The notes: generated from the letters alone by a model not told the origin. 64,000 bases of DNA from an uncultured Candidatus Saccharibacteria bacterium (GCA_964503755.1 CAZDBO010000003.1:32686-96685); one strand, 5' to 3'; positions 834-63,259 are shown, numbered from the stretch's first letter. Program-made: numbers and translations.

Positions 834-1025
834 ATGGCATCAAAAGGTAAGAAGAAAAAAAGAATATTAGTAAAACTTCATTCAACAGGAGTGAAGTCTG
901 ATGGACAACCCACAGGATATATCTATTACACATTTAAAAATCCTAGAAAGACTGAAGGTAAACTTGAATTAATGAAATATGATCCTATAATTCGCAAACA
1001 CGTTAAGTTCGTAGAAAAGAAATGA
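834..1025 (+). CDS. rpmG: 50S ribosomal protein L33
   Basis: [59 protein letters not shown] matches the L33 family (TTKNKR..EKLELKK.DP..R.HV); ATG at 834 inside the longer ORF-track call; TGA stop overlaps the next ATG (ATGA). Confidence 0.85.
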
Positions 1026-1624
1026 ATTCATATTCGGGTATATTATCAATTCTTGTTATTATACTAATAGGTCTTTTATTAGGATCTTACGGAAATAAGC
1101 TATTTAGATTTGCATTTCCAATATTTATTTTTGTTTTAACTATATATATTGTTTTATATTGGTTTAATTTTGATATAAATGTTCTATCTGTTATATCTGC
1201 ATTAATAATCGCTTCTATACTTATTGCAATAGGTGTACTTTTATACGATGTAGGCTTGCTTATTATAAGCGGATTAATTGGCTACATGATATCAATATCT
1301 ATATCAGGAATTTTATTTCCAAATGCCGATCAAAATGTTGTGTTTATTGTGAATATTGCTATCGCAGTTTTATTTGCAGCCATACCAGTTATCTTCAAAT
1401 TAAAAGATTGGATAGTTATTATTCTTACATCAATACTTGGTAGCTGGTTCATATCATTTTGTTTGATTTTCATAGTACCAAATACGGGTATCACACTGGG
1501 AATGATAAATATTACAAACGATCCTCTACCCTACCTTACAAATATTGGTAAGATAATATTTCTACTTTCTAACTTAATATTTACTATTTTATTCATATAT
1601 ATTCAGAAAAAGAGATTGAAATAA
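1022..1624 (+). CDS. Hypothetical polytopic membrane protein
   Basis: 200-aa ORF, at least 5 hydrophobic helices, translationally coupled to rpmG. Confidence 0.5.
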
Positions 1625-12477: not shown

Positions 12478-12963
12478 TGACTTCTTAAAAAATCCATATA
12501 ATTTTTTATATAAGACACATTATATTTTCTCTTCTCCGTTTCCCAATCTCGATCAATTGCCGAAGTATTATTTCGTGATAGATTATTATTTCCAACAAAG
12601 CTAAAACAACCAAAACTACACCAGTGAATACTACGGCTGTAGCCAGCGTTATAACTACAACAAATCTTCGCTTCGATTTTTATTTGTTATTAAATCCCTA
12701 CCCAAATAAAATATTTGTAAATTTGAATTATTTATTCTTGGCGTTACCTTTGCCTTTATATTTTCCAAAAAAAAACACTAAACCATTTAAATAATTGATT
12801 TACAGGAAAACCTCTCCTATTATCTCTTTTATCTGATTTATGATGGGCTTGCTTGTAACCAGATACAATACATTACTTTATTAAAATACCGTTACATTGT
12901 CAACAGAATCAAATCAAAATTTGTTTTTTGTCAAGTCTCATAACTGTTTATAATTTATTTGTA

Positions 12964-12993
12964 TTGACAAATAACGCATCAGTGAGTTACAAT
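12964..12993 (+). promoter_or_regulatory. Sigma70-like promoter (TTGACA-18-TACAAT); TSS predicted at the ATG of the DUF11 giant protein (leaderless)
   Basis: -35 TTGACA 12964-12969, -10 TACAAT 12988-12993, ATG at 13000 (7 nt downstream). Confidence 0.45.
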
Positions 12994-12999
12994 TTATAC

Positions 13000-15900
13000 A
13001 TGGAAAGGCCTACCAAATTATTAACAACAACAAGAAAAAATAATTATCAAGTTCTGATTTCTCTGATTGGACTAATAATTTTTGGTTTATTCTTTATAGT
13101 TTACCTCGTATCGGTGATCAGCAACAATGACAATCAAGCCAATATAAACTCTAAAGCTTATGCTTTTTCTGCAGAATGGATATACGACGGTGGAAATGGT
13201 CGCGCAAATCGCAACTGTAGATATCAAACAGGTGGTGGTAAATGTGCATTATCAGAATTTAGAGGATGCAATCCCGGTCCAGACACAATTTGTGTTTGTA
13301 ATAAAGATATAATCGTAAACAACGAACAAAGCTTAACCTATGGTAATTTTTCACTCATGCCTGTATCACAATATATTGAATGTGGCATTGATACGAGCAT
13401 CTGTAATAATCCAAATGTACCAGGTGAAACACTTCCTGATGGAAGCCGTATGGTCATAGGAGTAGCTTCTGTTTGCCAAAATCCTTATGCTATTAAATGT
13501 CCACCAAGACAGACACCTAGTCCAAGACGCGCAAGTGTAAACTTAGAAGTTGTATGTGTTGATGGAAATGACCGTACAGGTAATTTTACTATCACAGCTT
13601 CCGCTGTCAGAAGTTCTGATGGGCGAGGACTGGCAGTCCAAACTTTCAATAACGTCAGACCAAATTCTAGCGTACAAAGATATACAATAAATTTTGACTA
13701 TTTTGCAGATACGGATTTACCTGTCCGCCTTAATTTGGATAATTCTCCAACATCAGATAACGGTGTATATGTATCTAGAAATACATGTGCTGGATTAGAC
13801 TTACGAGATGGTGAAACTTGTAGACTCGAATATAGCGGCTGTCGTATACCCACAACACCACCACCTTCATCAACATCTATAAACGTTGGTGCAAGATGTG
13901 TGACAGAAGATGGCAGAAATGAAATCTTCAAAATATCAGGAATAAGATATCAGGCTTCCGTGAATGCACAAACACAAAGTGGAACTACTGGCAACAATCT
14001 TAATACCCATACATTCAATGGAGTAGGAAATGTTACTGTAACATTAGCTTCAAATCTTGATGAAATAAAAAGATTGCCACAACTTCAAAGATTTACACAA
14101 CTAAGACAATTGAGTCCAAACAGCATTACGGTTTCCAATGGAGGGGAAGCTATATTTAATTTTACAAATTGCTATATACCAATAACAGCACAATGTACTT
14201 CATTACGAATCGAATATACCGACACAAACAATCAACAAAAAACAATAAACGTTACATCCACAAATTCAGTTAATGTGGCTGATGGTTTACCAAAACCCGG
14301 TACACAATTGAGACTAATTGCAACAGGTGGAGATGCAAACACATTATTTAGAACTTTCTGGATGAAACCAATTAATGCTGATTCATCACAAGGATGTAAT
14401 TTTTATCTGATCCACAACGGTACAGTGAATACAACAATTAACTCTTCTGGTAACACAACAACCGCGACATTTACTCTACCAAACAATTATTTGACAGAAT
14501 TATCACGTGGTGACGCAGGACAAGATAAACTTGGACAATGTAATAATAAATTAGATTTTAGACAGGGTATCATGTTTGGTGTAAATTATCATGCTGAATG
14601 GATTGAAGGTATGAGATTTTGTAGAAATGTGTCTGGTCGTACAGAAGGTGGAGATTTAATTGAGGTCTACTGCGTAAATAGAGATAACAATGGAAATTGT
14701 ACTAGAGTAGACTGGAGACCAATCAATCAACGATGTGACAACATATGTATTGCTAACGCTAGACCAGCACAAACAGAAACGCCAAGATGTACAGGTTTAG
14801 AAATAACAAATTTAAGAAATAACAATACATGCAATGGCTCAAATCCTGCTGCTTGTAATTTGAATAGAGGTGATAGACTAAGAGTAACCATAAGGTATTC
14901 GGGTAATCCAAGAGAATACATTTCTGAAGAAACAGCCATATTTTATGGTACACGTGGTCCATTATCTGCATCACGAACATTAAATAGTCCAACTTTTGAA
15001 GTAAATGTAAATAACGATAATGATTTAAGAACATTCAGAATACGAGGAGACGTAAATCCTGGATCAAACAGTCAAAACAATCAATGTACTGTAGAATTCA
15101 ACTTCGCTCAAATTACAAATCAATCGATAAATGTTGAGGCTGTATGTAGAGATAATAATCAAAATATCAGACTTGGCGGCATAAACTATAGAATCACCGC
15201 ACAAGACAATTCTACACAAACTGGTACTACAGATAGCAACTCCGCAAGAACTCATAATTTCCTATCGAATCAAATGCCAGTAAGAGTTGAAATAACCGAT
15301 GAGATCGAAAGAATAAGACAAATTACAAGTTATCCAAATTTAGAGTTTGTAGATCCACCTGGCAGAACTATTAATAACGTGAATAATGGTCAAACTGCAA
15401 CATTCGTATTTAGAAATTGTGTAAGACAGACACTGAATCCGCAAATCACTATAGAAAAAAGACTTATTGAAGGAAATTATCAAAATGTTGGAAATAATGT
15501 TGTATTTGACATTGTAGTCAGAAATACAGGAAATGTGGATATCCGATCATTCAATTTATCAGATGAATTTGATAATAGATATCTTAAATTTATTGATGCA
15601 ACATATCGAAATGTAAATCTGGCACCAACAACTAGAATTGGTCCAAACAACAATTTAATAACTCTGAGATGGGATGATATGCCTCCAAAATCAGGAAATA
15701 TAACTGGTGAAGATGGAATCCTTACTATTAATGAAACATTTGTTTTGAGAGTAAGATTTAGAACACTAAATTCGACAGAAAATCTACCACAAAATGCCAG
15801 AGAAAATGATAACTGTGGATTAATAAACACTATAAGATTTGTAAATGATAGAAACGAAACAGAAATAAGAACTGTTGATCTGAGAAGTTGTGATGAGTTC

Positions 15901-16476
15901 TTCACACGTACACCTAGACCGCTCACAGTACAAATAAGTAAAAATGCTATAACAACCGAAGTAAATATTACTCAAGAAGCAAGATTCAGAATTACGATAA
16001 CAAATAACGACCCTGAAAGAAGAACATACACAGATATAGACTTTGTCGATACTTATGATGTTAGATTCTTAAAACCAATAAGAGCTCGTATTACAGCACC
16101 AAATGGTAGAGCGGCAGAGATCACAAATGTTCCTCATGTAAGTCCGTGGAGAATAGAAAACATACAAGAACTACAAAGTATAACTGGTGCCGGTCCTTTA
16201 GGAAATTTGGAATACAATCAATCATATGTAATAGAGCTTGTATACCAAGCATTAGCAGGTACAAATAGTACATGCGACACGGTCTATGCAGATGTTAGAT
16301 CAAGTGACAATAACGGAGCACGCAGTAATAATGCAGAAGCCTGTGTCAAAATAGTAGTACCACCATCCAAAGACACAGGTGCTGATGGATTTATACAATT
16401 GGTCCTACCAGGATTATTATCAACTGCTGCATATGTTGTGATGAGATTTGTTAGAAGAGAGGAGTACCTAGCTTAA
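13000..16476 (+). CDS. Giant surface protein: N-terminal signal-anchor TM, Cys-rich region, DUF11 (conserved repeat domain) repeats, C-terminal TM anchor with basic tail
   Basis: N-terminal TM YQVLISLIGLIIFGLFFIVYLVSVI; many Cys in residues about 90-560; DUF11-like repeats (NVVFDIVVRNTGNVDIRSFNLSDEFDNRYLKFIDATY; ARFRITITNNDPERRTYTDIDFVDTYDVRFLKP); C-terminus ...FIQLVLPGLLSTAAYVVMRFVRREEYLA. Confidence 0.7.
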   Translation: MERPTKLLTTTRKNNYQVLISLIGLIIFGLFFIVYLVSVISNNDNQANINSKAYAFSAEWIYDGGNGRANRNCRYQTGGGKCALSEFRGCNPGPDTICVCNKDIIVNNEQSLTYGNFSLMPVSQYIECGIDTSICNNPNVPGETLPDGSRMVIGVASVCQNPYAIKCPPRQTPSPRRASVNLEVVCVDGNDRTGNFTITASAVRSSDGRGLAVQTFNNVRPNSSVQRYTINFDYFADTDLPVRLNLDNSPTSDNGVYVSRNTCAGLDLRDGETCRLEYSGCRIPTTPPPSSTSINVGARCVTEDGRNEIFKISGIRYQASVNAQTQSGTTGNNLNTHTFNGVGNVTVTLASNLDEIKRLPQLQRFTQLRQLSPNSITVSNGGEAIFNFTNCYIPITAQCTSLRIEYTDTNNQQKTINVTSTNSVNVADGLPKPGTQLRLIATGGDANTLFRTFWMKPINADSSQGCNFYLIHNGTVNTTINSSGNTTTATFTLPNNYLTELSRGDAGQDKLGQCNNKLDFRQGIMFGVNYHAEWIEGMRFCRNVSGRTEGGDLIEVYCVNRDNNGNCTRVDWRPINQRCDNICIANARPAQTETPRCTGLEITNLRNNNTCNGSNPAACNLNRGDRLRVTIRYSGNPREYISEETAIFYGTRGPLSASRTLNSPTFEVNVNNDNDLRTFRIRGDVNPGSNSQNNQCTVEFNFAQITNQSINVEAVCRDNNQNIRLGGINYRITAQDNSTQTGTTDSNSARTHNFLSNQMPVRVEITDEIERIRQITSYPNLEFVDPPGRTINNVNNGQTATFVFRNCVRQTLNPQITIEKRLIEGNYQNVGNNVVFDIVVRNTGNVDIRSFNLSDEFDNRYLKFIDATYRNVNLAPTTRIGPNNNLITLRWDDMPPKSGNITGEDGILTINETFVLRVRFRTLNSTENLPQNARENDNCGLINTIRFVNDRNETEIRTVDLRSCDEFFTRTPRPLTVQISKNAITTEVNITQEARFRITITNNDPERRTYTDIDFVDTYDVRFLKPIRARITAPNGRAAEITNVPHVSPWRIENIQELQSITGAGPLGNLEYNQSYVIELVYQALAGTNSTCDTVYADVRSSDNNGARSNNAEACVKIVVPPSKDTGADGFIQLVLPGLLSTAAYVVMRFVRREEYLA

Positions 16477-20246: not shown

Positions 20247-22010
<1,764 letters not shown>

Positions 22011-27779: not shown

Positions 27780-28478
27780 TTATTTTGTACTAAACGCAAC
27801 CAAACGTCCTCTTACCACTAATCTATGAGTATCAAAACCAGGAGGATAACATGTTTGCAGTGTAGCAAATCTACCATCCTCATCGACATTAAAATAACTA
27901 CGATCGTCCGCTTCTATTATTCGAATAGAGTCGACGAAATAATCATATTGCCTGCCTTGATAAAAAACAGTAAACAGATCTCCTCTTTCCAACTTTGATA
28001 AAAGTGTAAACTGTGCATTGTATCTCCACATATCTTGTACATTTCTTGTGGAATGAGAGAAAAAGAATGCATTACCATAATCACCGGGTACCGCTGAACC
28101 ACGTGCCCAAGCTATTCCCTTTTTCATAGCTTCCTCTGATTCAGCATCGTTATTTATATCATTCACAACAAATACAATATCATTAACACCAATTTTGGGT
28201 ATAACAAGTCCAAAATCACGATTTTTAGGGTTATCGACATTATGTATAGGATATGCTTTTACTTCTGGTATATCTTCAACTCTTCTTTTTGCTAAAAGAT
28301 CTTCAAATTTGGGCGCATTACGCGATCTTTCATCGAAAATCTGCATAAAAGCATATCTAATTTCATGATAAAATATAGGACCATAAAAAAGTATTATCCA
28401 AAAAATGCCTAAAATCATTATAGTATTTAAAGTTATCAGGATAACCGTTTTTTTTCTTTTTTTATTGGCTTTTATCAC
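27780..28478 (-). CDS. Sortase family transpeptidase (N-terminal TM anchor)
   Basis: LERGDLFTVFYQGRQYDYFVDSIRII (beta6/beta7 region), catalytic ATLQTCYP (TLxTC) and downstream conserved Arg (HRLVVRGRL). Confidence 0.75.
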   Translation of the reverse strand: MIKANKKRKKTVILITLNTIMILGIFWIILFYGPIFYHEIRYAFMQIFDERSRNAPKFEDLLAKRRVEDIPEVKAYPIHNVDNPKNRDFGLVIPKIGVNDIVFVVNDINNDAESEEAMKKGIAWARGSAVPGDYGNAFFFSHSTRNVQDMWRYNAQFTLLSKLERGDLFTVFYQGRQYDYFVDSIRIIEADDRSYFNVDEDGRFATLQTCYPPGFDTHRLVVRGRLVAFSTK

Positions 28479-28537
28479 AATATAAATTATACCATCTTCA
28501 ATGTATTTGATATAATATGTTGAATCAATAAATGAAG

Positions 28538-28613
28538 CGCATGTAGCTCAGTTGGATAGAGCAAGGCACTCCTAACGCCTAGGTCGTAGGTTCGAGTCCT
28601 ACCTTGCGCGCCA
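28538..28613 (+). tRNA. tRNA-Arg (anticodon CCT)
   Basis: GCGCATGTAGCTCAGTTGGATAGAGCAAGGCACTCCTAACGCCTAGGTCGTAGGTTCGAGTCCTACCTTGCGCGCCA; one U.U mismatch in the acceptor stem. Confidence 0.75.
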
Positions 28614-29610
28614 TACTATCATTTATATTATCCAGTAGAATAAATATTCTTTTTGTTGTAATTACTAAACTTTTTATTGTATAAAGAATTGTTTCGTCAT
28701 TATCTAATTCTTCGTTTCTAATGAGAAGATTTGTTTTTAAAAAATTTATTTGATTTAAAATTTGATTCGACACCAAAATAGATATACTATTAGAAAAATT
28801 TTTATCAACATTTTGCAAGCTAAGTAATGAAAAAATTATTCTTTCAATATTTATAAGATATTTATAAATTTCAAACAAAAATATTATATTTGAGTCAGCA
28901 AAAACATATTTAAATTTTAAGGTATAAGACATAAATAAACTATTTTCCAGATCTTCAAAAAAGTTCTCTGAATAGTTATTATGTAAACTATTACTTTTCA
29001 CTGGTATTAAATAATTTAATTTTTCTAGATGCTTTAGAGAATCATTAATCTGAATAAAAATCTGCTCAACCTCGCCCACATTGTCTCTTTCAGAATTGTT
29101 TGATACGTATATTGATTTGTATTTTTCTGTTGTATACTTGAACACCTCAACTAATTCATTAATGTTTTTATAGAGGAATAAATATCCGACAACAATAAGA
29201 ATATGGTTAACTCTCAAAAACTTTAATACACTTTCCAAGCTTGTTGTTTTTTTATCTTTTTTATCTTTATGTCCTACAAATTGAATAAACTTTGATGGAT
29301 TATGCGGAAATTCAATTTCGTCATAATTTGACTTGTTCACAAGAGATTTTATTATTTCAAAAATAAATTCAAAATATAGATCTTGCAAATCTGATGATAA
29401 CCAAAGTTTCGTAATGTGATTTAGATATTTATTATTTTTCATTAATTTATCTATTGATAAAATGAGAATTGATGCCGTTACCGAATCTATATTCCCATGC
29501 AACAGAAGAACCCTAATATACAACTTTAGTATATTTAGATGATTAATAATCATATTTTCACGTATAAAATATCTCAATTTTTTATCTTTCATTAACTTAG
29601 AATATAACAA
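28579..29610 (-). CDS. Hypothetical all-helical protein (orphan); 3' end as called overlaps tRNA-Arg on the opposite strand
   Basis: 343-aa ORF; the last 11 codons (...ARKVGLEPTT) are the antisense of the tRNA, so the true C-terminus is uncertain. Confidence 0.35.
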   Translation of the reverse strand: MLYSKLMKDKKLRYFIRENMIINHLNILKLYIRVLLLHGNIDSVTASILILSIDKLMKNNKYLNHITKLWLSSDLQDLYFEFIFEIIKSLVNKSNYDEIEFPHNPSKFIQFVGHKDKKDKKTTSLESVLKFLRVNHILIVVGYLFLYKNINELVEVFKYTTEKYKSIYVSNNSERDNVGEVEQIFIQINDSLKHLEKLNYLIPVKSNSLHNNYSENFFEDLENSLFMSYTLKFKYVFADSNIIFLFEIYKYLINIERIIFSLLSLQNVDKNFSNSISILVSNQILNQINFLKTNLLIRNEELDNDETILYTIKSLVITTKRIFILLDNINDSMARKVGLEPTT

Positions 29611-29670: not shown

Positions 29671-30525
29671 ATGGCATTATCAATAAAACCAGAGGTATTA
29701 TTTAGTATTGGCAATTTTGAAGTCACAAATTCGTTTATATCTTATATTTTTATAATTTTATTAACTTCATTTGTTTATATTCTTATTTCAAAAAAGATAT
29801 CTATTTATCCTAAATCTAAATTAGGTTTAGGATCAGAGATTATTATTGAATCATTAAAAAAGACATGCGAGGATGTCGTGGGCTCAAAAATAACTAAAGA
29901 AATATTTGCCTTCATTTTCTCATTCTTTGTATTGATATTATTTTCAAATCTATTTGGTCTCATGCCATTTACTGGCTCTATCGGTATCGCTCATCCCAAA
30001 GACGACTCAAAATCAGTATCTTTAGGATCCGTATATGTAATCGAACTAGAAAATACTAGTCATATTAGTGAAGAAAAAAATAAGTTTGAAATTATTCCAT
30101 TTTTTAGATCACCTTCTGCTGATTTAAATTTCACAGTATCAATGGGTATAGTTACATTTTTACTAATACAAATCACAGCATTAAAACATGCAAAAATCGA
30201 GTATTTGAAAAAATTTTTTGATTTAAGAGTACCGATATATAATGGAATCAAAATAGTACTTACTCCAATAATGTTTGTTATTAATATATTTTGGCGATTA
30301 TTAGAAACGATACTAGAACTTTCAAAACTTATTTCTTTTTCATTCCGTCTCTTTGGAAGTATATTTGCAGGAGAAGTACTGTTGTTTGTTATTACTTCCT
30401 TAACATTAGGTATAGGTACTTTGCTAATATTTCCAATAGAAATATTTGTATCTTTTATTCAGGCATTTGTTTTTATATTTCTGACAGTGGTATTCATTAA
30501 GGTAGGTATAGATACTCACCATTAA
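29671..30525 (+). CDS. atpB: F0F1 ATP synthase subunit a
   Basis: Conserved RLFGSIFAGE (essential Arg helix) and 5-6 TM helices. Confidence 0.85.
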   Translation: MALSIKPEVLFSIGNFEVTNSFISYIFIILLTSFVYILISKKISIYPKSKLGLGSEIIIESLKKTCEDVVGSKITKEIFAFIFSFFVLILFSNLFGLMPFTGSIGIAHPKDDSKSVSLGSVYVIELENTSHISEEKNKFEIIPFFRSPSADLNFTVSMGIVTFLLIQITALKHAKIEYLKKFFDLRVPIYNGIKIVLTPIMFVINIFWRLLETILELSKLISFSFRLFGSIFAGEVLLFVITSLTLGIGTLLIFPIEIFVSFIQAFVFIFLTVVFIKVGIDTHH

Positions 30526-30578
30526 TGATGCGTAAATAAATATTTGCACATAAACAATTAATTGATAAAATACGAGCG

Positions 30579-30803
30579 ATGGAAGAATTAAAATATATAG
30601 CAATAGCATTAGCGATCGGACTTGGTACACTTGGTCCAGGTATAGGCTTAGGTTTAACAGCATCAAAAGCTGTTGAGGCCTTGGGCAGAAACCCTGAAGT
30701 AGAAAATAAAATAAGAACCTTAATGATCTTGGGTATGGGTTTGATTGAAGTTTTGGCTATTTTTGCATTGGTCATAGCTTTCTTGATCGCCTTCGTACTA
30801 TAA
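30579..30803 (+). CDS. atpE: F0F1 ATP synthase subunit c
   Basis: 74-aa hairpin proteolipid, GxGxGxG N-terminal helix, conserved carboxylate in GLIEVLAIF. Confidence 0.9.
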   Translation: MEELKYIAIALAIGLGTLGPGIGLGLTASKAVEALGRNPEVENKIRTLMILGMGLIEVLAIFALVIAFLIAFVL

Positions 30804-30823
30804 AAATAAGAATTAAATAAAAC

Positions 30824-31312
30824 ATGGAAGCACTTGGATTAAATTTAGTACAAATAGTTAGTTATACTGTCATATTTTTACTGTTTTATATAATTTCAAA
30901 AAGATTTATTAATAACTTTTTTAAGGTTGTTGAAGAACGTCAATCAAGTATTAGAGAAGGATTAGAGAATGCACAAAAAGCTAAAGTATTAAAAGAAGAG
31001 ATAGTCTCAGAAGCACAGAAAGAAAGTCAAAAAATATTAGAACAAGCTTATCTAGAAGCCAAAAATATTATTAACAACGCAAAAGAAAAAGAGCAAAAAA
31101 TAATTGCTGAAGCTGAAAAAAAATATGAAGGCATCATCCTACATGCACGTGATGATATAGAAAAAATGAAAGAAAAAGCTAAACAAGAAGGTCTAAAAGA
31201 AGCCGAATCAATTATTAAGTATGCCATAAATCAAGCTTTTAGAGAGATACAATTAACTGAAGAACAACATAAAGAATTTATTAAAAAGTCATTAGATTTG
31301 ATTAAAAAATGA
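30824..31312 (+). CDS. atpF: F0F1 ATP synthase subunit b
   Basis: Single N-terminal TM plus long charged helix (EEAQKESQKILEQAYLEAKN...). Confidence 0.8.
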   Translation: MEALGLNLVQIVSYTVIFLLFYIISKRFINNFFKVVEERQSSIREGLENAQKAKVLKEEIVSEAQKESQKILEQAYLEAKNIINNAKEKEQKIIAEAEKKYEGIILHARDDIEKMKEKAKQEGLKEAESIIKYAINQAFREIQLTEEQHKEFIKKSLDLIKK

Positions 31313-31509
31313 AAGCATATATTTATTCTAAAATCGAATTAGATAGTGAAACAAAGTCATTAGTACAAAGTTTTATTAAAGATAAATATCAGATAAATGA
31401 ATTTCAATACGAAATCGACCAAGAAATAACAGCAGGTATAAAAATAAAAATTGGGGGAAAAGTAATTGACCTTACTTCTAATTTAATACTAGAAAATATA
31501 CTATCATAA
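31309..31509 (+). CDS. atpH: F0F1 ATP synthase subunit delta, truncated (C-terminal domain only, 66 aa)
   Basis: ...ITAGIKIKIGGKVIDLTSNLILENILS matches the delta C-terminal signature (LIGG..IR.GD.VIDGS....L..L); ATGA overlap with atpF; no N-terminal helical bundle. Confidence 0.55.
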   Translation: MKAYIYSKIELDSETKSLVQSFIKDKYQINEFQYEIDQEITAGIKIKIGGKVIDLTSNLILENILS

Positions 31510-31516
31510 ATAGTTT

Positions 31517-33049
31517 ATGTTACTTGAGAAAATAAAAAAGGAAAAAAATCAAGCCAGTCCAAACATTGTCTATTCTGAAGGAAAAATTATCAAATGTTAT
31601 GATGGAATCATAATTGCTGATGGACTAGATACTGTAGGATATTTTGAGATTGTCAAAATTTATCTAAATGAAAACGAATTTGTCAAAGGTATAGCAGTTG
31701 ATCTCAGACAAGATGAAGTGGGAATTATTCCCTTAGAAGATACTACAAATGTCAAAATAGGATTAAGAGTAGTTACCACAGGCCAAAAATATACTATCCC
31801 CTGTTCTCAAGCATTTCTTGGAAGAATTATTGATATATTAGGCAATCCTATTGATGGAAATGGAGATATTTTACATACAGATCCCAAATACCAACTTGTT
31901 GAAAGAAAAGCACACGGTGTTATAGAAAGAAAATCTGTTAATGTACCATTATTGACTGGCATTACAGCAATAGATGCTCTAGTACCAATCGGTAGAGGTC
32001 AACGTGAATTAATAATAGGTGATAGGCAAACAGGAAAAACATCTCTTGCAATAGATATAATTATTAATCAAGCTAAGATCAATAATAAAATAGAAAACGG
32101 CGAAGAAAATGGTAAAAAAGTTTATAGCATATATGTCGCTGTTGGACAAAAAAGATCTAAATTAGTACAAATTGTAAATACTTTGAGAAAATTTGATGCG
32201 TTGAAATATACAATTATTGTTGCTGCCACAGCATCAGAACCTGCACAAAAGCAGTTTTTAGCACCATTTGTAGGTACCGCAATAAGTGAATACTTCATGG
32301 AAAACGGAAATGATGCTCTTATTGTTTATGATGATCTGACAAAACATGCCAAAGCTTATCGACAGATATCTCTACTTTTACGCAGACCACCAGGTCGTGA
32401 AGCTTACCCTGGAGATATTTTTTATTTACATTCAAGACTTTTAGAACGTTCTGCAAGATTGTCAGATGAACTTGGTGGCGGATCTTTAACAGCATTACCG
32501 ATCATCGAGACACAGGCAGGTGATGTATCTGCTTATATTCCTACAAATGTGATTTCTATTACTGATGGACAGATATATCTTAAATCTGAATTGTTCAATT
32601 CGGGCCAGAAACCTGCTGTCGATGTAGGTCTATCTGTATCAAGAGTCGGTGGTTCTGCTCAATATAAAGCCATAAAACAAGTAGCAGGTTCTTTACGTAT
32701 TACTTTAGCTCAATTTAGAGAACTTATTAGTTTTGTTCAGTTTGGAGTTGAGGTAGACAAAATTACTCAAAGCCGTATTGATATGGGGTTAAAATATACA
32801 GAAGCATTAAAACAAGGATTGCATGAATTATTTTCTATGCCAGAACAAGTAGTAATTTTATGGGCAATGAAAAATGGCTATTCTAATGATATAGAAAAAA
32901 GTCAAACACAGTCTTGGGTTCGACGTCTTTTAGAATTTATCAATGACCATTATCAAGAACAAATAATCAACAAAATAAATACAGAAAAGTCAATCACTGA
33001 CGAAATAGAAAATAATTTACATCAAGCCTTAAAAAATTTTAAATTTTAA
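31517..33049 (+). CDS. atpA: F0F1 ATP synthase subunit alpha
   Basis: P-loop GDRQTGKTS, conserved alpha catalytic-site residues; contains an insertion of about 20 aa (KINNKIENGEENGKKVYS). Confidence 0.95.
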   Translation: MLLEKIKKEKNQASPNIVYSEGKIIKCYDGIIIADGLDTVGYFEIVKIYLNENEFVKGIAVDLRQDEVGIIPLEDTTNVKIGLRVVTTGQKYTIPCSQAFLGRIIDILGNPIDGNGDILHTDPKYQLVERKAHGVIERKSVNVPLLTGITAIDALVPIGRGQRELIIGDRQTGKTSLAIDIIINQAKINNKIENGEENGKKVYSIYVAVGQKRSKLVQIVNTLRKFDALKYTIIVAATASEPAQKQFLAPFVGTAISEYFMENGNDALIVYDDLTKHAKAYRQISLLLRRPPGREAYPGDIFYLHSRLLERSARLSDELGGGSLTALPIIETQAGDVSAYIPTNVISITDGQIYLKSELFNSGQKPAVDVGLSVSRVGGSAQYKAIKQVAGSLRITLAQFRELISFVQFGVEVDKITQSRIDMGLKYTEALKQGLHELFSMPEQVVILWAMKNGYSNDIEKSQTQSWVRRLLEFINDHYQEQIINKINTEKSITDEIENNLHQALKNFKF

Positions 33050-33051
33050 AA

Positions 33052-33930
33052 GTGTCAGCATTACTCAATATTCAAAATAAAATAAGGGCGACGAAAAATA
33101 CAGCACAGCTCACTAAGGCTTTGGAAATGATATCTGTAACCAAGCAAAAAAAAGCCCGTGAATATATGATTTTCAATTCTGCACTTAGAGATGGTATTAG
33201 GAAGATAATTAATCAATTATACTTTCAAGAGAAATTAAAGAATTTAGGCAATGAAATATTACCAAAATATTTTCGAAAAAAATTAGAATCAAACAGACAT
33301 TTAGTAATTTTGATAATGTCCCAAAGGGGACTTTGTGGGAGCATAAATACACAATTGATCCAAAAGTTAATAAATTACAAAAAACACATACTTAGTGAAA
33401 ACAAAAATATTGAATTCGATATAATCACGGTAAATAAATATGCTCAAAAAATTTCCAAATCGTTAGACTATAATATAATAGCCTACTTTGACAGTATAAA
33501 GGATCTTCCATCAATCGAGGATACACTACCCATATCTGATTTAATAAAAAAACTATACGATGAATACGAGACTATACATATAGCATATACCCAATTTGTT
33601 AAACCTGCACGGACAACACCAACGGTAAGACCTATATTACCAATCAGTGTATCTACAGGATGGAAAGAAAATGATCTATCCTCTACTCCATACGTAATTG
33701 AACCAAATCCTATCACCGTGTTAGAAGAAATAGTAAGATTATATATTGATTTGGAAATCCATTATGCTATTCTAACATCACAAGCTTCAGAGCACACTTC
33801 ACGTATGATTGCTATGAAAAAAGCTTCGGACAATACCAAAAACTTAGTAAAAAATTTAACACTTTTGTATAACAAGGAGCGACAAGCTAAAATTACTAAA
33901 CAAACTATTGAAATCACATCATCTATATGA
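33052..33930 (+). CDS. atpG: F0F1 ATP synthase subunit gamma
   Basis: N-terminal IRATKNTAQLTKALEMISVTK and C-terminal ...ITKQTIEI helices typical of gamma. Confidence 0.85.
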   Translation: MSALLNIQNKIRATKNTAQLTKALEMISVTKQKKAREYMIFNSALRDGIRKIINQLYFQEKLKNLGNEILPKYFRKKLESNRHLVILIMSQRGLCGSINTQLIQKLINYKKHILSENKNIEFDIITVNKYAQKISKSLDYNIIAYFDSIKDLPSIEDTLPISDLIKKLYDEYETIHIAYTQFVKPARTTPTVRPILPISVSTGWKENDLSSTPYVIEPNPITVLEEIVRLYIDLEIHYAILTSQASEHTSRMIAMKKASDNTKNLVKNLTLLYNKERQAKITKQTIEITSSI

Positions 33931-34523
33931 GATTAATAAGCAACTATGATATTTCAATTTTTGTATCTATTTTAGGATTAATTTTTTCAATATTAGGGAT
34001 ATTAGTATCTTTTATTTTATCCTTAGAATATCTAACAATCTTATCAAATCAAACTAAAACTTTAAGCTGTGATATCAATGCACAGATCAGCTGTAGCAGT
34101 GTCATGTTATCAAATCAAGCTAGAGTATTTTTTAACATACCAAATACATATTTCGGATTTATATTTTACTCTATAATGCTTACTTTTTTTATAATAAATA
34201 TATTTGAGAAGATTAACAATAGGATTTTAAATTCAATTTTTTTTCTAATTAGTCTAATAGGAATTATATTTTCTGCATGGTTGATGCAACAAAGTATATT
34301 TGCAATCGGTTCTTTGTGTCCATACTGTATTGTGTCATTTATTTCGGCCTCTTGTATATTTTTTGCAGCTTTATATTTAACTATAAAAAATCTAAAAACA
34401 TCATTACCGCTTGTATTAAAAACACAAGACTTTCTATTCGATAAAAAATGGATATTTTTCTTTATTTTTGCTTGGTTCTTCGTTTGGACATTAATAATTT
34501 TTATTAAATATAGAACACTTTAA
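33927..34523 (+). CDS. Vitamin K epoxide reductase (VKOR) family membrane protein (DsbB analogue)
   Basis: Loop cysteine pair LSCDINAQISCSSV plus TM CxxC (SLCPYCIVSF) in a 5-TM protein. Confidence 0.65.
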   Translation: MRLISNYDISIFVSILGLIFSILGILVSFILSLEYLTILSNQTKTLSCDINAQISCSSVMLSNQARVFFNIPNTYFGFIFYSIMLTFFIINIFEKINNRILNSIFFLISLIGIIFSAWLMQQSIFAIGSLCPYCIVSFISASCIFFAALYLTIKNLKTSLPLVLKTQDFLFDKKWIFFFIFAWFFVWTLIIFIKYRTL

Positions 34524-49750: not shown

Positions 49751-52333
49751 TTGATGCGAGTTATATTAATTATCTGTACAATATTAGTTTGGATAACAGT
49801 TTGTAACTTTACTATTGGCCCTAAATACCATACATATACAAAAGCCGAACGAATAAGTGATGAAAAAAATAAAGATTCCCTAATTACCAAAACCGCATTA
49901 ATTTCTAAAACAGACAGTTATATTTCTGTAAAAAATTTAAATGGAAAAAAAATATTAGATAAAATACCAAAACATATAAAACTAAGTTTTAACACACAAA
50001 ATGATATTTATCCCAATTTTATAAGAAAGCCATTAAGTATTCCAAATGATCCTTTTTATAACAGCGTTGGTACTATCCTAACAGGTCAACCAGATCAATG
50101 GAACTTAAGACAAATCGATTTATTCCCAACTTCAGATACAAATTCAGCATGGAATATTAACACTGGAGCCGAAGAAACAATAATAGCCGTAATAGATACA
50201 GGTATAGATCTGACTCATCCAGATATTATTAACTATGACGAAGATGCAGACGCATATAACCCATCAAATCTTTGGATAAATCAAAATGAAATTCCAAATT
50301 CACTCAAAACAGTTCTTGACAACAATAGTGATAATTATATTGATACTGAGGAGATAATTACATATTACATAAATAACAATTTAGATTTAGATAATGACAC
50401 AGAAATCACTCTGAAAGATGTGTTACTATATAATTCTGATGCTCCTGTCGACATAATAGCTGATAATACAGATCAAGACAATAACAATATAAAAGATGAC
50501 ATCTTTGGTGCAAGATTTAACTACGGTAATGATAACAACAACATAAATCACATAGATAGTCACGGAACAAACGTTGCAGGTATCACAGGATTAGCAAAAT
50601 CTAATAATAATATTGGCATATCAGGCATATGCTTTTCCTGTAAAATAATGATCATTAATCCATTTCAAAATATTTCTGGGTTTGGAATAGGTGCATATGA
50701 TATAGATATAGTCAGAGGAATAGAATACGCTGTAAATAACGGAGCTGATATTATTAATTTAAGTCTTGGTGGTGAAGGATATAGTAGTCTTTTTGATGAA
50801 TATATAGCAGATGCTTGGGATCAAGGAGTACTAGTGGTTGCTGCAGCGGGCAATAGTAGTATGAGTGTAGATGAATTTACTCCCGCATCTAGTAACTATG
50901 TAATAACAGTTGGTGCTTCAAACTTTAATAAAACAAAATTATCTTTTTCAAATTATGGTACTCGCCTTGACATTATGGCTCCTGGGGGGAACGTACTAAC
51001 AACATCACCTCAAGTTTCGACATCATGCACGGGATCAAACAGTAAATACACTTGTGTATGGGGAACATCAATAGCTGCGCCACACGTTTCTGGAGTAGCT
51101 GGGTTGATACATAGCTACCAAAATAGTAATGGATGGAATGCCAAACAAATTAGAAAAGCAATACTTAAATCAGCCGAAGATCTCTCTACTTCAGGTTTTG
51201 ATACTCAAACAGGATATGGATTTTTAAGAGCAAAAGCCGCATTAGAATACAATTATGTCGCTGACACAACTTCTCCAACTTTATCAGTAACAGAACCAAG
51301 TGATAACGAAGTTTTATCATCCAATATCGTCATTAGAGGATCGGTAGATGACGATGATCTCTACAACGTAAGAGTAACCATACTAAATCTATCGAATTGG
51401 CCTGTATATAAAGAAACAAGAAAAGGTACTGTCAATAATGATGTAATATTTGATATCAATACAATCTCTAATTATATACTTGATGGTACATACAAAATAC
51501 GTATTGAAGCAGAGGATTTTGAGGGAAATATGACAGCAGAAGAACGAAATATAACAATCAGAAAGGGAGCTTATTTAGAAATTACCACACCTAATGGTCA
51601 ATTCTCAAATAATAAGAGACCTACTATTAACTGGAACGTACTTAATAATCCGAACCCAAGTTATACAAGATGGTATTTTGAAATTGAGGAAGTTGGTAGC
51701 ACATCAAACACATTTGTTATAAATGATGAAGAAGCTAGATCATTTACATTTCCAAATGATTTAGAATTTTTAAATCAAACAACTTCTATATCCATAACTT
51801 CTATTGTCTGCTTTGATGCCCCTTCGCAATGCCATGACTATGAAGAAGATTATCATACGATTAGTTACATCGCTGATACCATACCTCCATCACAACCTAA
51901 TGCAGAATTAGAAATAAATAGGAATAATATAAAACTGAAAAACTTTACATCTTCTGACAATTTATCAGGTATCAAAGAATATATTGTAACTTTTAATTCA
52001 TCGAATACAACTGTATCTCCAGGATATGAATACAATGCAAATAATCTTAACGACGGTAGTTATACAATCAGCGTAAAAGCAAAAGATAACGCTAACAACG
52101 AATCAACCTTAAACGAAATAACATTTGAAATAACTGCACTAAAAGATTTTCGTAAAACAAAGGCTGATTTTAATAATGATGGAATAGTAAACCTTTCTGA
52201 TTTGAGCATACTTGCAGCAAGATGGCTACAGGATAACAACGTTGCTGATGCAAATGGAGATAATAAAACAAATTTATCTGATCTAAGTATTCTAGCAGCC
52301 AACTGGCAGCGTAGATTTGATACTCTAGAATAA
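49751..52333 (+). CDS. Subtilisin-like S8 serine peptidase with Ig-like modules and C-terminal type-I dockerin
   Basis: Catalytic triad regions VIDTGID, HGTNVAG, GTSIAAPHVSG; C-terminal duplicated Ca-binding segments DFNNDGIVNLSDLSILAARW / DANGDNKTNLSDLSILAANW. Confidence 0.85.
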   Translation: MMRVILIICTILVWITVCNFTIGPKYHTYTKAERISDEKNKDSLITKTALISKTDSYISVKNLNGKKILDKIPKHIKLSFNTQNDIYPNFIRKPLSIPNDPFYNSVGTILTGQPDQWNLRQIDLFPTSDTNSAWNINTGAEETIIAVIDTGIDLTHPDIINYDEDADAYNPSNLWINQNEIPNSLKTVLDNNSDNYIDTEEIITYYINNNLDLDNDTEITLKDVLLYNSDAPVDIIADNTDQDNNNIKDDIFGARFNYGNDNNNINHIDSHGTNVAGITGLAKSNNNIGISGICFSCKIMIINPFQNISGFGIGAYDIDIVRGIEYAVNNGADIINLSLGGEGYSSLFDEYIADAWDQGVLVVAAAGNSSMSVDEFTPASSNYVITVGASNFNKTKLSFSNYGTRLDIMAPGGNVLTTSPQVSTSCTGSNSKYTCVWGTSIAAPHVSGVAGLIHSYQNSNGWNAKQIRKAILKSAEDLSTSGFDTQTGYGFLRAKAALEYNYVADTTSPTLSVTEPSDNEVLSSNIVIRGSVDDDDLYNVRVTILNLSNWPVYKETRKGTVNNDVIFDINTISNYILDGTYKIRIEAEDFEGNMTAEERNITIRKGAYLEITTPNGQFSNNKRPTINWNVLNNPNPSYTRWYFEIEEVGSTSNTFVINDEEARSFTFPNDLEFLNQTTSISITSIVCFDAPSQCHDYEEDYHTISYIADTIPPSQPNAELEINRNNIKLKNFTSSDNLSGIKEYIVTFNSSNTTVSPGYEYNANNLNDGSYTISVKAKDNANNESTLNEITFEITALKDFRKTKADFNNDGIVNLSDLSILAARWLQDNNVADANGDNKTNLSDLSILAANWQRRFDTLE

Positions 52334-52335
52334 AA

Positions 52336-53733
52336 ATGATAAGAAATAAAAATATGATAGTGAAAATACTAAATAAGTTTATTGTAACAATTTTTGTTTT
52401 CATTTTGTTTTTTTTTATATTTCAAACTAACAACACAATACAAGCCGCAGGTGTGATAATAATCACAGGACCAAATCAAGTATTCCCAAATCAAACCTTT
52501 GACATAACAGTATTTGTAACAAGAGATCAAGCTTACAATGCTGTAGATATATCAATCAATGTCGGTACATTTTCAATACAATCAGTTAGCCTAATTGGTG
52601 GATGGACACCAATAACAGGTCCAACAACAAGTGGTAACACCGTTTCTTTTTCCGGTGCAATTTTGGGCCAACAATTAAATGGACAAAAAGAAGTATTATC
52701 GATAAAATTGACATCTCCAAATGCATTACAAACCATAACTATAACAGGAAATGGCTCTGTAAGTGGAGAAGGATTTGGCACAGGTTCAGATAATATTTCA
52801 GGGTCTAAAACGATAAACATAATTCTAACTCCTACTCCATCACCAACGCCAATACCATCCCCCACCCCTACTCCTCGACCTAGACAAAACACACCAACTC
52901 CAACTCGTACTCCCACACCTAATCCACAAAATTTATTACCATCTATCACTTCGATAACTTCTATATCTCACCCCGAACCAAACAAATGGTATAACAATAA
53001 AAGTGTTACCGTCACATGGACAGCGAATAACAATGCTAATGGATTTAACTATGAATTCAGCAAAAATCCCACTGACAATCTTACAAATGAAATAAAGACT
53101 ACGTCTACAACAGTATCTTCAGAGTTAAGTGACGGTGAAAATTATTTCCACGTGAAAGCAAGAAATAATAATGGATGGGGACAGGCATCATCTTTTAAAA
53201 TAAATATCGACACAACACCACCAGAAGATTTTGTTATTACAATAAACCAAATAAATAATAACGAATATCAAATTAGTTTTAATACAACAGACTCGCTATC
53301 GGGTATAAACAAATACGAAGTCTATCTGGATAATGTGCTTTTATCAAGCAACACTTCACCAATAACAGTTCAAACATCATTTTCCGAAGCTAAAGTAATA
53401 GCATTTGACAATGCCGGAAACCAAAAAATATCAATTAAAAGGTTAAATTTATCACAAACTACTACACCGACTAATCTAAATAATAATAAATCTGATACTA
53501 ATACTATTTCTCATAACACAACGGATAATACTACAGCAAACAGTAAAAATGCTCAGCAAAATCAAAATAATTTAGGACAAATAGGATTAATTGCGTCACT
53601 CATTGTCAATATAATTTTATTAATTTATTCTGTCGTTATATCTTATCTCTACTTTTTCAAGAAAAAACCTAATGATATCCAAACTCCAAGCAAACAAGAA
53701 GAAAAATCTATATCTTCTGATAAAAATGATTAA
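52336..53733 (+). CDS. Membrane-anchored cohesin-like protein: signal/TM, cohesin-like beta-sandwich, Pro/Thr linker, Ig-like module, C-terminal TM
   Basis: Residues about 36-150 have cohesin-like strand pattern (VIIITGPNQVFPNQTFDITVFV...NAVDISINVGTFSIQSVSLIGGW...); linker TPTPSPTPIPSPTPTPRP; Ig-like module shares D-x-SGI / D-NAGN motifs with the protease; C-terminal TM LIASLIVNIILLIYSVVISYLYFF. Confidence 0.45.
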   Translation: MIRNKNMIVKILNKFIVTIFVFILFFFIFQTNNTIQAAGVIIITGPNQVFPNQTFDITVFVTRDQAYNAVDISINVGTFSIQSVSLIGGWTPITGPTTSGNTVSFSGAILGQQLNGQKEVLSIKLTSPNALQTITITGNGSVSGEGFGTGSDNISGSKTINIILTPTPSPTPIPSPTPTPRPRQNTPTPTRTPTPNPQNLLPSITSITSISHPEPNKWYNNKSVTVTWTANNNANGFNYEFSKNPTDNLTNEIKTTSTTVSSELSDGENYFHVKARNNNGWGQASSFKINIDTTPPEDFVITINQINNNEYQISFNTTDSLSGINKYEVYLDNVLLSSNTSPITVQTSFSEAKVIAFDNAGNQKISIKRLNLSQTTTPTNLNNNKSDTNTISHNTTDNTTANSKNAQQNQNNLGQIGLIASLIVNIILLIYSVVISYLYFFKKKPNDIQTPSKQEEKSISSDKND

Positions 53734-62036: not shown

Positions 62037-62507
62037 CTACCTCGTAAAATGAGCATATGTCTTATTAGCTTCTGCCATCTTGTGTACCTCATCTCTCTTC
62101 TTCAATACATCACCTTGATCGGTTAGTATATCAGCAAATTCTTTCAACAGATCTTTATCAAATGGTTGTCCTTTTCGTTTTCTTGCAAAATCGCGGATCC
62201 ATCTCATAGCTATCAAAAGTCCTTTTTGTCTCTCAACAGGGACAGGAACTTGTATATTTGCCCCTCCTACCCTTCTTGACTTAAGCATTACTGTAGGTCT
62301 AGATTTGTCTAAAATCTCTTCAAACAATTCTAAAGCGGGTTTATTTTGAGATTCTTCCAGTTGTTGTAATGCAGAATAAACAAGTTTTTGTGCAACTGTC
62401 TTTTTACCGTCACGCATTATTATATTTATAAACTTACTTACTAGTAAAGAGTTATATACTGGGTCCGGTTTGACTTCTCTTCTTTTTATATTGCTTTTTT
62501 TTCTCAT
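62037..62507 (-). CDS. rpsG: 30S ribosomal protein S7
   Basis: MRKKSNIKRREVKPDPVYNS...RDGKKTVAQKLVY... typical S7. Confidence 0.95.
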   Translation of the reverse strand: MRKKSNIKRREVKPDPVYNSLLVSKFINIIMRDGKKTVAQKLVYSALQQLEESQNKPALELFEEILDKSRPTVMLKSRRVGGANIQVPVPVERQKGLLIAMRWIRDFARKRKGQPFDKDLLKEFADILTDQGDVLKKRDEVHKMAEANKTYAHFTR

Positions 62508-62614
62508 ATTATTTTAATTTATTAGGTGCGTAAAAAATCACAAAACTTACTAAGCACCATTTTCTTCAGTTTTGCAGACGAATTATAACATAGAGAAATA
62601 GAATAATCCAATAA

Positions 62615-63259
62615 CTATTTTTCAAGAATATTTTTCTCAAAAGACTTTGATCTATTGTATAAGTACCAAGTTACCAAAATAAATACGAAAATTAATGTAG
62701 GTAAAAACATATCATTTATACCCGCATTTGGTGCTGTATTAGAAATATCCACACGAGCTTTAGTACAAATTTCTTCAGGTTCTATCAAACAAACCTCGTT
62801 TTCCGTATTTTGTCCCGGGTTATCTACTCTAACCTTGTAAGTAATGACTATACTTTGATTTGGATTTAGTTGTTGAATAGTATCCCCATCAAATTCCCAT
62901 CTAATAACGCTATCAGAATTAGTGACAGGCTCAAACGCTACCTCTTCACCTGAAGTTTTAATAAGTTTAGGTTCTCCACTATAAACAAATCCCTGAGGTA
63001 ATTTGTCCTCAACGATTTCCGGAGTTAAAGTTTCAGAAGTTGTAATATTTTTGATTGTTACAGAATAAATAACAGTACCTCCTCTAGCAACAGTTTGTGG
63101 TGAAACATTTTTCTCTATAGAAAATCTCGTTCCTGTAGCAAGGTCAGCATATGCGTAATAAGTACTAAACAAAAATAAAAATATCAAGATTAAAACAAAG
63201 AAAAATCGTTTTACAAAATCTATTTTATCAAATAAATCAATACCTAACATCACATTCAT
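62615..63259 (-). CDS. DUF11 (conserved repeat domain) surface protein with signal peptide and C-terminal TM anchor
   Basis: FSIEKNVSPQTVARGGTVIYSVTIKNITTSETLTPEIVEDKLPQGFVY is a classic DUF11 repeat; C-terminus ...FLPTLIFVFILVTWYLYNRSK. Confidence 0.7.
   Translation of the reverse strand: MNVMLGIDLFDKIDFVKRFFFVLILIFLFLFSTYYAYADLATGTRFSIEKNVSPQTVARGGTVIYSVTIKNITTSETLTPEIVEDKLPQGFVYSGEPKLIKTSGEEVAFEPVTNSDSVIRWEFDGDTIQQLNPNQSIVITYKVRVDNPGQNTENEVCLIEPEEICTKARVDISNTAPNAGINDMFLPTLIFVFILVTWYLYNRSKSFEKNILEK

Follow-up and report, generated by a model that had tools for sequence, protein, structure and literature searches.

A stand-alone sortase in a Dojkabacteria-like contig and two candidate substrates with putative degenerate LPXTG-type signals

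What does a sortase act on when none of the proteins encoded around it ends in a canonical LPXTG sorting signal? The question is raised by a 64,000-nucleotide stretch of contig CAZDBO010000003.1 (positions 32686-96685; assembly GCA_964503755.1, filed as an uncultured Candidatus Saccharibacteria bacterium), which we call the window and which is AT-rich (31.6% GC). It encodes a sortase and two surface proteins of the DUF11 (CLIPPER) type, one small and one giant. The best answer we can offer is that the enzyme is a stand-alone, housekeeping-type sortase of the candidate phyla radiation (CPR) and that the two surface proteins are its dispersed substrates, bearing degenerate signals of the LPXTG type; we put the probability of this reading at roughly 0.6. 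A search of the literature on CPR, Patescibacteria, Microgenomates and Saccharibacteria found no paper on the substrates or motifs of CPR sortases.

A first-pass annotation of the window had recognized a sortase with a TLQTC active site and a conserved arginine at this locus. That identification holds, with the gene on the minus strand. The predicted protein matches PF04203 over the full length of the model (positions 1-125) with 70.4 bits (E=1.5e-19; cutoff 26.6). In an alignment of the window protein with ten homologs at 29-46% identity (alignment A2), H142, C210 (within TLQTC) and R219 are invariant across all 11 sequences. An N-terminal membrane anchor, at about residues 10-35, is followed by the extracytoplasmic catalytic domain. 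A sortase 92% identical to it lies on a contig of a metagenome-assembled genome titled Candidatus Dojkabacteria, a CPR/Patescibacteria lineage, and NCBI gives the same label to a 79% identical ortholog of one window protein. The sortase assignment is correct, and the enzyme looks like an ordinary one of the wall-anchoring type, with a predicted transpeptidase activity on a sorting signal. One sortase family, fam000526, is found in more than half of CPR genomes and is nearly ubiquitous in Microgenomates (Meheust et al. 2019, PMC6744442); the portion of that paper dealing with the family gives its distribution only, with no substrates and no motif. The window sortase and 80 metagenomic homologs plausibly belong to this family.

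The genes around the sortase run in the order ATP-synthase genes, a 343-amino-acid (aa) open reading frame (ORF) with no Pfam match, tRNA-Arg, sortase, and, in convergent orientation, a gene for a 490-aa membrane protein whose counterparts in relatives are PEGA-like. Close Dojkabacteria relatives keep this order. On contigs whose sortase is 37% identical, the ATP-synthase operon ends directly before the sortase gene and the PEGA protein follows it. Because the synteny of ATP-synthase genes, sortase and PEGA-like protein is kept down to this level of identity, we regard the enzyme as a housekeeping rather than a pilus-island sortase. Genes for GlmS, a Mur ligase, MurJ, Ddl and Alr are present in the window as well, which makes a lipid II-type peptidoglycan acceptor plausible.

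No ORF in the window combines LPXTG with a hydrophobic segment and a basic tail, as the first-pass annotation had stated for its candidates, and the two DUF11-type proteins it singled out are the only plausible substrates that the window offers. Both have the three-part layout of a sorting signal: APNAG-IND, 19 hydrophobic residues and RSK... in the small protein, and SKDTG-ADG, 18 hydrophobic residues and RFVRR... in the giant one. The pentapeptides lie 4-8 residues upstream of the LP[GT]L tetrapeptide that had originally been proposed as the sorting motif. Neither agrees with the L-P-x-T-G consensus; APNAG keeps P and G, and SKDTG keeps T and G.

In the small protein, this pentapeptide is conserved. 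APNAG is invariant in three orthologs (79-100% identity), and the small-protein family as a whole, aligned as A3, has the form xPx[TAS]G. Full-length homologs carry NPNTG, IPNTG, SPQAG, TPDAG (twice), TPKSG and, in one case, NPNAS, while longer proteins with this domain at their end show QPNTG, LPNTG, LPNSG and LPRTG at the APNAG column. The proline, P177, is among only 15 invariant columns of the alignment. Several homologous tails pass the curated LPXTG-anchor model TIGR01167 (cutoff 15.9): those of P0023 (IPNTG, 17.0 bits), P0025 (SPQAG, 18.7 bits), P0092 (QPNTG, 20.5 bits) and P0071 (LPRTG, 23.0 bits), where P numbers denote individual proteins. In these tails the pentapeptide falls on model positions 2-6, which are the LPXTG positions. 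A MAFFT alignment of 26 C-termini places both APNAG and SKDTG in the column block of LPATG, LPPTG, LPRTG and QPNTG. The window tails look like degenerate members of the LPXTG signal class, recognizable through homology only.

Genes linked to related sortases were also considered. A scan of genome contigs with the single sortase sequence as query yielded 2 loci only, and a scan of metagenomes with alignment A2 yielded 80, which form the locus set used here (L numbers denote loci and contigs). In these loci, [LM][PA]x[TA]G stood just before the segment in 18 of the 111 ORFs that have a C-terminal hydrophobic segment and basic tail, and occurred in the last 45 aa of 3 of the 833 other ORFs. Of the 36 loci that span 8 kb or more, fourteen include such a gene, and in most cases it begins directly behind the sortase stop codon. 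By Pfam domains, the neighbors fall into two types. The first is small, at about 220 aa, and combines one DUF11 domain with LPPTG (L019, L028); the second is a giant of 1,400-2,000 aa whose last domain is DUF11 or DUF7507, followed by LPATG, LPPTG, LPGTG or LPAAG. Most of the giant neighbors scanned have SpaA/SdrD-type domains, and two have VWA. The giant that ends in LPAAG is adjacent to the sortase of L008, so alanine at position 4 occurs in the clade. The window has both neighbor types, but dispersed. The flanks of five Dojkabacteria loci (L001, L085, L089, L092 and L094) held no further candidate substrates.

The cytoplasmic tails show a further likeness. An aromatic residue comes right after the basic cluster in 12 of 15 CPR sortase-linked tails, compared with 1 of 13 other DUF11 tails of LPXTG type (Fisher p=1.7e-4, although orthologs in the count are not independent). 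These basic-aromatic tails, which include both window tails, read KKYAKN, KKHAKN, RSKSFEKN and RREEYLA; they are found in P0021-P0028 and in sortase-adjacent ORFs of L005, L008, L016, L046, L054 and L080.

Some CPR sortases are flanked by small Thr/Pro/Ala-rich proteins with MAGTG or MAKTG, a hydrophobic segment and a basic tail (L010, 5584-9415; L046, 16981-17721; L082, 7715-8353). This is a Pro-less, LAXTG-like variant in the same sortase clade.

Our reasons for favoring degenerate signals are therefore the invariant triad, the conserved pentapeptide column, the homologous tails that pass the LPXTG-anchor model and the same protein types adjoining CPR sortases, together with LPAAG in L008, the basic-aromatic tails, the peptidoglycan genes and the housekeeping synteny. 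In such a system, Sec would export the small and the giant protein, and the C-terminal hydrophobic segment and basic tail would retain both in the membrane. Cys210 would cut after position 4 of the pentapeptide, between A179 and G180 of APNAG and possibly between T and G of SKDTG in the giant. A peptidoglycan-precursor amine would resolve the acyl-enzyme, so that the single-domain CLIPPER protein and the giant adhesin end up attached to the wall. The LP within the hydrophobic stretch would belong to the retention helix and not to the recognition site. We infer the cleavage, its site, the peptidoglycan acceptor and the service of one sortase to both proteins from sequence. We regard the small protein as a probable substrate.

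For the giant protein, the odds that it is a substrate through SKDTG are about even. It has an N-terminal signal or anchor, C-terminal domains of CLIPPER_2 type, and a C-terminal hydrophobic segment with a basic tail; its translation ends in ...VVPPSKDTGADGFIQLVLPGLLSTAAYVVMRFVRREEYLA, exactly as first annotated. The DUF11 label given to both proteins is solid for the small one (PF01345) and marginal for the giant, which reaches 29.0 bits with DUF7507/CLIPPER_2 (cutoff 27; residues 837-883) and stays below the cutoff for the TIGR01451 repeat (16 bits versus 24). A word-index homolog search with the giant found two orthologs, P0170 and P0171 (85-87% identical), and one weak match. Another protein, P0134 (1,232 aa), which ends in LPRTG, shows distant collinear similarity to it. 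The sequence PPSKDTGADG is invariant in the orthologs. Pro-less pentapeptides do occur in other DUF11 proteins, namely LQDTG in P0160 and LAQTG in P0086, each then followed by LPALG. We rejected a PEP-CTERM/exosortase reading for the tail of the giant (VPPS...GLL...RR), as no PEP-CTERM model matched it and no exosortase match appeared among the window ORFs scanned.

Table 1. Positions, in window coordinates, of the sortase, the two candidate substrates and other features named in the text
Feature	Position	Strand	Basis
Sortase, 232 aa, GTG start	27780..28478	-	Pfam PF04203
TLQTC of the sortase (contains C210)	27849-27863		
Small surface protein, 214 aa	62615..63259	-	PF01345
APNAG, residues 176-180, proposed sortase recognition pentapeptide of the small protein	62720..62734	-	A3, orthologs
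Hydrophobic segment MFLPTLIFVFILVTWYLYN of the small protein, holds LPTL	62654..62710	-	sequence
Cytoplasmic tail RSKSFEKNILEK of the small protein: basic cluster, then conserved F-E	62618..62653	-	A3
Giant Cys-rich surface protein, 1158 aa from ATG 13000 (ORF 12928-16476)	13000..16476	+	DUF7507, orthologs
SKDTG, candidate degenerate pentapeptide of the giant protein, residues 1147-1151 (ORF numbering)	16366..16380	+	MAFFT column, orthologs
Hydrophobic segment FIQLVLPGLLSTAAYVVM of the giant protein (holds LPGL), tail RFVRREEYLA, stop	16390..16476	+	sequence
ATP-synthase genes, one part	20247-21972	-	
ATP-synthase genes, other part	29671-33930	+	
tRNA-Arg(CCT)	28537-28613	+	
343-aa ORF	28579-29610	-	
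VKOR-family gene	33927-34523	+	
200-aa membrane protein with VPNTG	1022-1624		
MetE-like ORF, 604 aa	6958-8772	+	
GlmM-like ORF, 281 aa	11489-12334	-	
Secreted S8 subtilase, 860 aa (region)	49751-53733	+	

Several observations weigh against degenerate signals served by this sortase. The sortase lies 11-34 kb from both substrate genes, with no operon link in the window genome. The window tails have no match to TIGR01167 or PF00746 even at E<=10, so that the first-pass annotation was right to call the signals non-canonical. A profile built from 16 independent sortase-linked CPR signals left the small tail undetected at 1.2 bits (E=3), and the giant tail was not among the 15 best matches listed; the profile is dominated by a VLGAST-E-LPATG context that is absent from the window proteins. 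SKDTG lacks both Leu and Pro, keeping T-G only, and the giant orthologs are too similar to one another to show selective conservation of it. In the small protein, the extreme C-terminus is itself conserved. Its sequence had been annotated correctly as far as ...NRSK, but the true end continues with SFEKNILEK (...NRSKSFEKNILEK); F207 and E208 within it are invariant across a family of proteins of about 205 aa, with the tail consensus [KR]x[ST]FE[EKQ]xx[LIV]. The classical model, in which sortase discards the tail, lacks an explanation for this conserved F-E. Finally, the survey covers about 64 kb of the genome, and other sortases or better substrates may lie elsewhere.

These observations would suit an alternative, raised already by the first-pass annotation, in which both proteins, or the giant alone, are simple C-terminal membrane anchors and the true substrates of the sortase are encoded outside the window. 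The failure of the LPXTG-anchor hidden Markov models on both tails, the lack of Leu and Pro in SKDTG, and a sortase gene that adjoins neither protein gene all fit it, and the conserved cytoplasmic F-E is better explained if the tail is kept. In addition, at many CPR loci other proteins next to the sortase have a hydrophobic segment and basic tail but no pentapeptide. Yet P177 and the xPx[TAS]G column are kept at 28-38% identity while the hydrophobic segment drifts freely, the curated model accepts homologs at the APNAG column as genuine LPXTG anchors, and both protein types are operonic with sortase homologs elsewhere. We consider simple anchoring rather unlikely, though a good way short of negligible.

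Comparison with known systems helps to place the degenerate signals. Several features agree with the SrtA-type housekeeping system of Gram-positive bacteria: the enzyme is a Cys transpeptidase anchored in the membrane, with TLxTC and the His/Cys/Arg triad; its gene stands alone, outside any pilus island; peptidoglycan precursor genes are present; and the signal is tripartite, with a pentapeptide that ends in G before the hydrophobic segment and basic tail. The window system differs in that the enzyme falls below every class cutoff, that APNAG has no Leu and has Ala at position 4 while SKDTG has neither Leu nor Pro, and that the tails, unlike TIGR01167 / PF00746 anchors, go undetected by the curated models and bear a conserved aromatic/acidic extension. 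Other non-canonical motifs are NPQTN (SrtB), LAXTG (class E) and (S/P)PXTG in C. difficile. These and the NPXTG anchors (NF033846), against which the P0023 tail scores below threshold (15.8 versus 23.5), are precedents for a relaxed position 1 or 2. The cognate enzyme classes of the NPXTG, NPQTN, LAXTG and (S/P)PXTG systems differ, however; the window sortase matches class E weakly (27 bits), and the window tails match none of the models. We set aside as coincidental a VPNTG in a 200-aa membrane protein, which stands about 45 residues from the C-terminus and before a further hydrophobic stretch.

A more specific proposal, which we advance tentatively and think doubtful, is that Dojkabacteria, and perhaps CPR widely, use a lineage-specific signal, overlooked by present LPXTG models and made of a Leu-less xP[NDQK][TAS]G and a cytoplasmic basic-aromatic/acidic determinant, with the single-CLIPPER protein as the major wall-anchored surface protein of the lineage. 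The second determinant may be [KR]xSFE in the small family and KK[YH]AKN in giant adhesins. If this were true, the tail would be more than a stop-transfer charge: it would be read by the cytoplasmic or membrane part of the sortase or some other factor, or would have a role once cleavage has taken place.

The location of the small-protein gene is also conserved. It lies directly upstream of rpsG-fusA on the same strand (region 62037-63259, minus strand, in the window; 7169-8393 in L089; 4923-6145 in L094; 10001-11423 in L095), and this position is kept in all Dojkabacteria contigs examined, down to 32% protein identity. Such a fixed spot before rpsG-fusA suggests that the small protein belongs to the core surface proteins and may be strongly expressed. 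The gene usually found at roughly the place occupied here by the small-protein gene is rpsL, which a signature-pattern search of the window did not find. In close relatives, a MazG gene lies between rpsG and fusA.

Once mature, the small protein would consist of one CLIPPER (DUF11) domain of the Ig-like kind (PF01345, 33.1 bits; cutoff 24.6). The AlphaFold2 (AF2) model has an Ig-like fold with a predicted local distance difference test (pLDDT) score of 81, and its Foldseek matches include the Gram-positive pilins EbpB, RrgB and BcpA and the CLIPPER structure 9ifr. CLIPPER domains of fibrillar adhesins contain a Lys/Asp/Asn isopeptide triad (PMC12617251). K50, D85 and N154 of the small protein are invariant in alignment A3, as are C157 and C165, and the spacing of the three resembles that of K715, D748 and N806 in 9ifr (PMC12617251), the bond itself being predicted only. 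Like 9ifr, the small protein also has a presumed disulfide near the last strand. Whereas the CLIPPER domain of fibrillar adhesins is a tandem stalk repeat, here one domain makes up the whole mature protein.

This fold bears on a second alternative, in which the sortase is a pilus-polymerizing, class C-like enzyme, the small protein is its pilin and the giant is perhaps a tip adhesin. None of the NCBIfam class models reaches its cutoff with the sortase, the scores being 60.2 bits for class C (NF033745; cutoff 160), 42-45 bits for class D (cutoff 140-165), 27 bits for class E (cutoff 160) and 25 bits for class F (cutoff 166), with no class A family among the matches listed. Class C is thus the best of them, and it is also the closest in a phmmer sequence search of the PDB (2.5e-11). 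The AF2 model of the sortase (pLDDT 80) has class C sortases as its top Foldseek matches (E about 1e-11; template modeling score about 0.5-0.6 over the catalytic barrel), and the best matches in sequence and fold are C. perfringens SrtC (6ixz), S. pneumoniae SrtC1 (3g66/2w1j) and group B Streptococcus SrtC1 (3rbi). The small protein, besides resembling pilins in fold, passes TIGR04226, 'isopeptide-forming domain-containing fimbrial protein' (32.8 bits; cutoff 30), and the giant CPR proteins adjacent to sortases that have VWA and SpaA domains are like tip pilins.

However, the class C score is far under its cutoff, and the hallmarks of that class are missing. The sortase sequence contains no DP[WFY] lid motif, and A2 shows no conservation ahead of beta-1; a C-terminal membrane anchor is lacking, the protein stopping 13 residues past R219; and no pilin genes adjoin the sortase among the window neighbors examined. 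Nor does the small protein offer a lysine for polymerization. It has no YPK pilin motif, and K50, the sole invariant Lys in its family, sits with D85 and N154 in the intramolecular triad, so that no conserved nucleophile Lys remains. Because of these last two points, covalent pilus polymerization is unlikely, and we regard the pilus reading as a whole as distinctly improbable. CPR 'Pam' pili were set aside as an identity for the small Ig-like protein, since Pam pilins, at 38.7 and 55.3 kDa, exceed it in size, are two-domain proteins and assemble through donor-strand exchange (bioRxiv 10.64898/2026.03.03.709456).

There remains the tetrapeptide LP[GT]L, which the first-pass annotation had placed at the edge of the hydrophobic segment in both tails and proposed as the cognate sorting motif. 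It is present in both, but inside the hydrophobic segment. Among the window ORFs, which total about 19,000 aa, it is restricted to these two tails (0.6 occurrences expected from composition), which speaks in its favor, as does the retention of the L-P dipeptide in all six of the close Dojkabacteria orthologs. To gauge how surprising a shared tetrapeptide is, given that this one was defined post hoc after both sequences had been inspected, we can refer to C-terminal hydrophobic segments compared in 2,125 unrelated pairs: in 50% of the pairs a tetrapeptide agrees at 3 of 4 positions and a similar offset, and in 1.1% this holds if Pro is required. The shared LP[GT]L is a mild coincidence rather than strong evidence.

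Conservation goes against the motif. Positions 3 and 4 vary already in close orthologs (79-87% identical): the three small-protein orthologs have LPTL, LPTL and LPIL (the last in P0003), and the three giant-protein orthologs have LPGL, LPGL and LPGV (the last in P0171). In an exhaustive phmmer search, the full-length small-protein homologs at 28-38% identity had no Pro at the LPTL place; one of them, P0027, is likewise assigned by name to Dojkabacteria. Tails of this kind often have a Pro early in the hydrophobic segment (22 of 80), and such a Pro also follows the genuine LAQTG and LQDTG motifs of other DUF11 proteins, as LPALG. As LP[GT]L moreover lies within the membrane-spanning stretch, which a sortase active site would not reach, it is very improbable that it is the sorting motif.

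Some features of the sortase neighborhood deserve mention in their own right. The ATP-synthase genes of the window are split, with the beta and epsilon subunit genes about 8 kb from the a-c-b-alpha-gamma block and on the opposite strand. In L086 and L088, whose sortase is 37% identical, the operon is unbroken and the sortase gene comes directly next, which implies a rearrangement in the window lineage. The 343-aa ORF lies just upstream of the sortase on the same strand, and overlaps the tRNA-Arg(CCT) gene in antisense over its last 35 nucleotides; L001 has a similarly sized ORF (342 aa) at the corresponding position. The last 4 nucleotides of the ATP-synthase gamma gene are shared with a VKOR-family gene, which lies about 5.5 kb from the sortase. 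The VKOR product may serve disulfide formation in Cys-rich exported proteins, and the proximity of its gene fits the oxidative folding of such proteins. In the part of their paper that concerns this family, Meheust et al. (PMC6744442) describe a CPR VKOR family beside a disulfide-forming protein family and cite a link to sortase-mediated pilus assembly in Actinomyces.

Elsewhere in the window, the GlmM-like ORF covers only PGM/PMM domains II-IV, and domain I was not found in any frame of the 660 nucleotides upstream; the gene is either truncated or a pseudogene. The match of the MetE-like ORF is confined to the C-terminal half of the Meth_synt_1 N-terminal domain (model positions 154-311), and this ORF may be N-terminally shortened. 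The S8 subtilase has Ig-like and dockerin-like domains. Three bases past its stop codon begins a 465-aa protein with no Pfam match. At its C-terminus a membrane segment precedes a charged tail of 27 residues, and it has no pentapeptide resembling LPXTG.

CPR/Patescibacteria attach to other microbes, and their display of surface proteins is poorly known. On the comparisons made here, the sortase clade normally pairs with LPXTG-type adhesins that have CLIPPER domains, and in the Dojkabacteria lineage the signal seems to have drifted, to APNAG and SKDTG, beyond detection by TIGR01167 and PF00746. The system is known in kind, and the drift of the signal and the conserved tail are its only mildly novel points. 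The understanding of sortase mechanism is unchanged; the use of the finding would be in the prediction of surface proteomes and in the choice of peptides for biochemistry.

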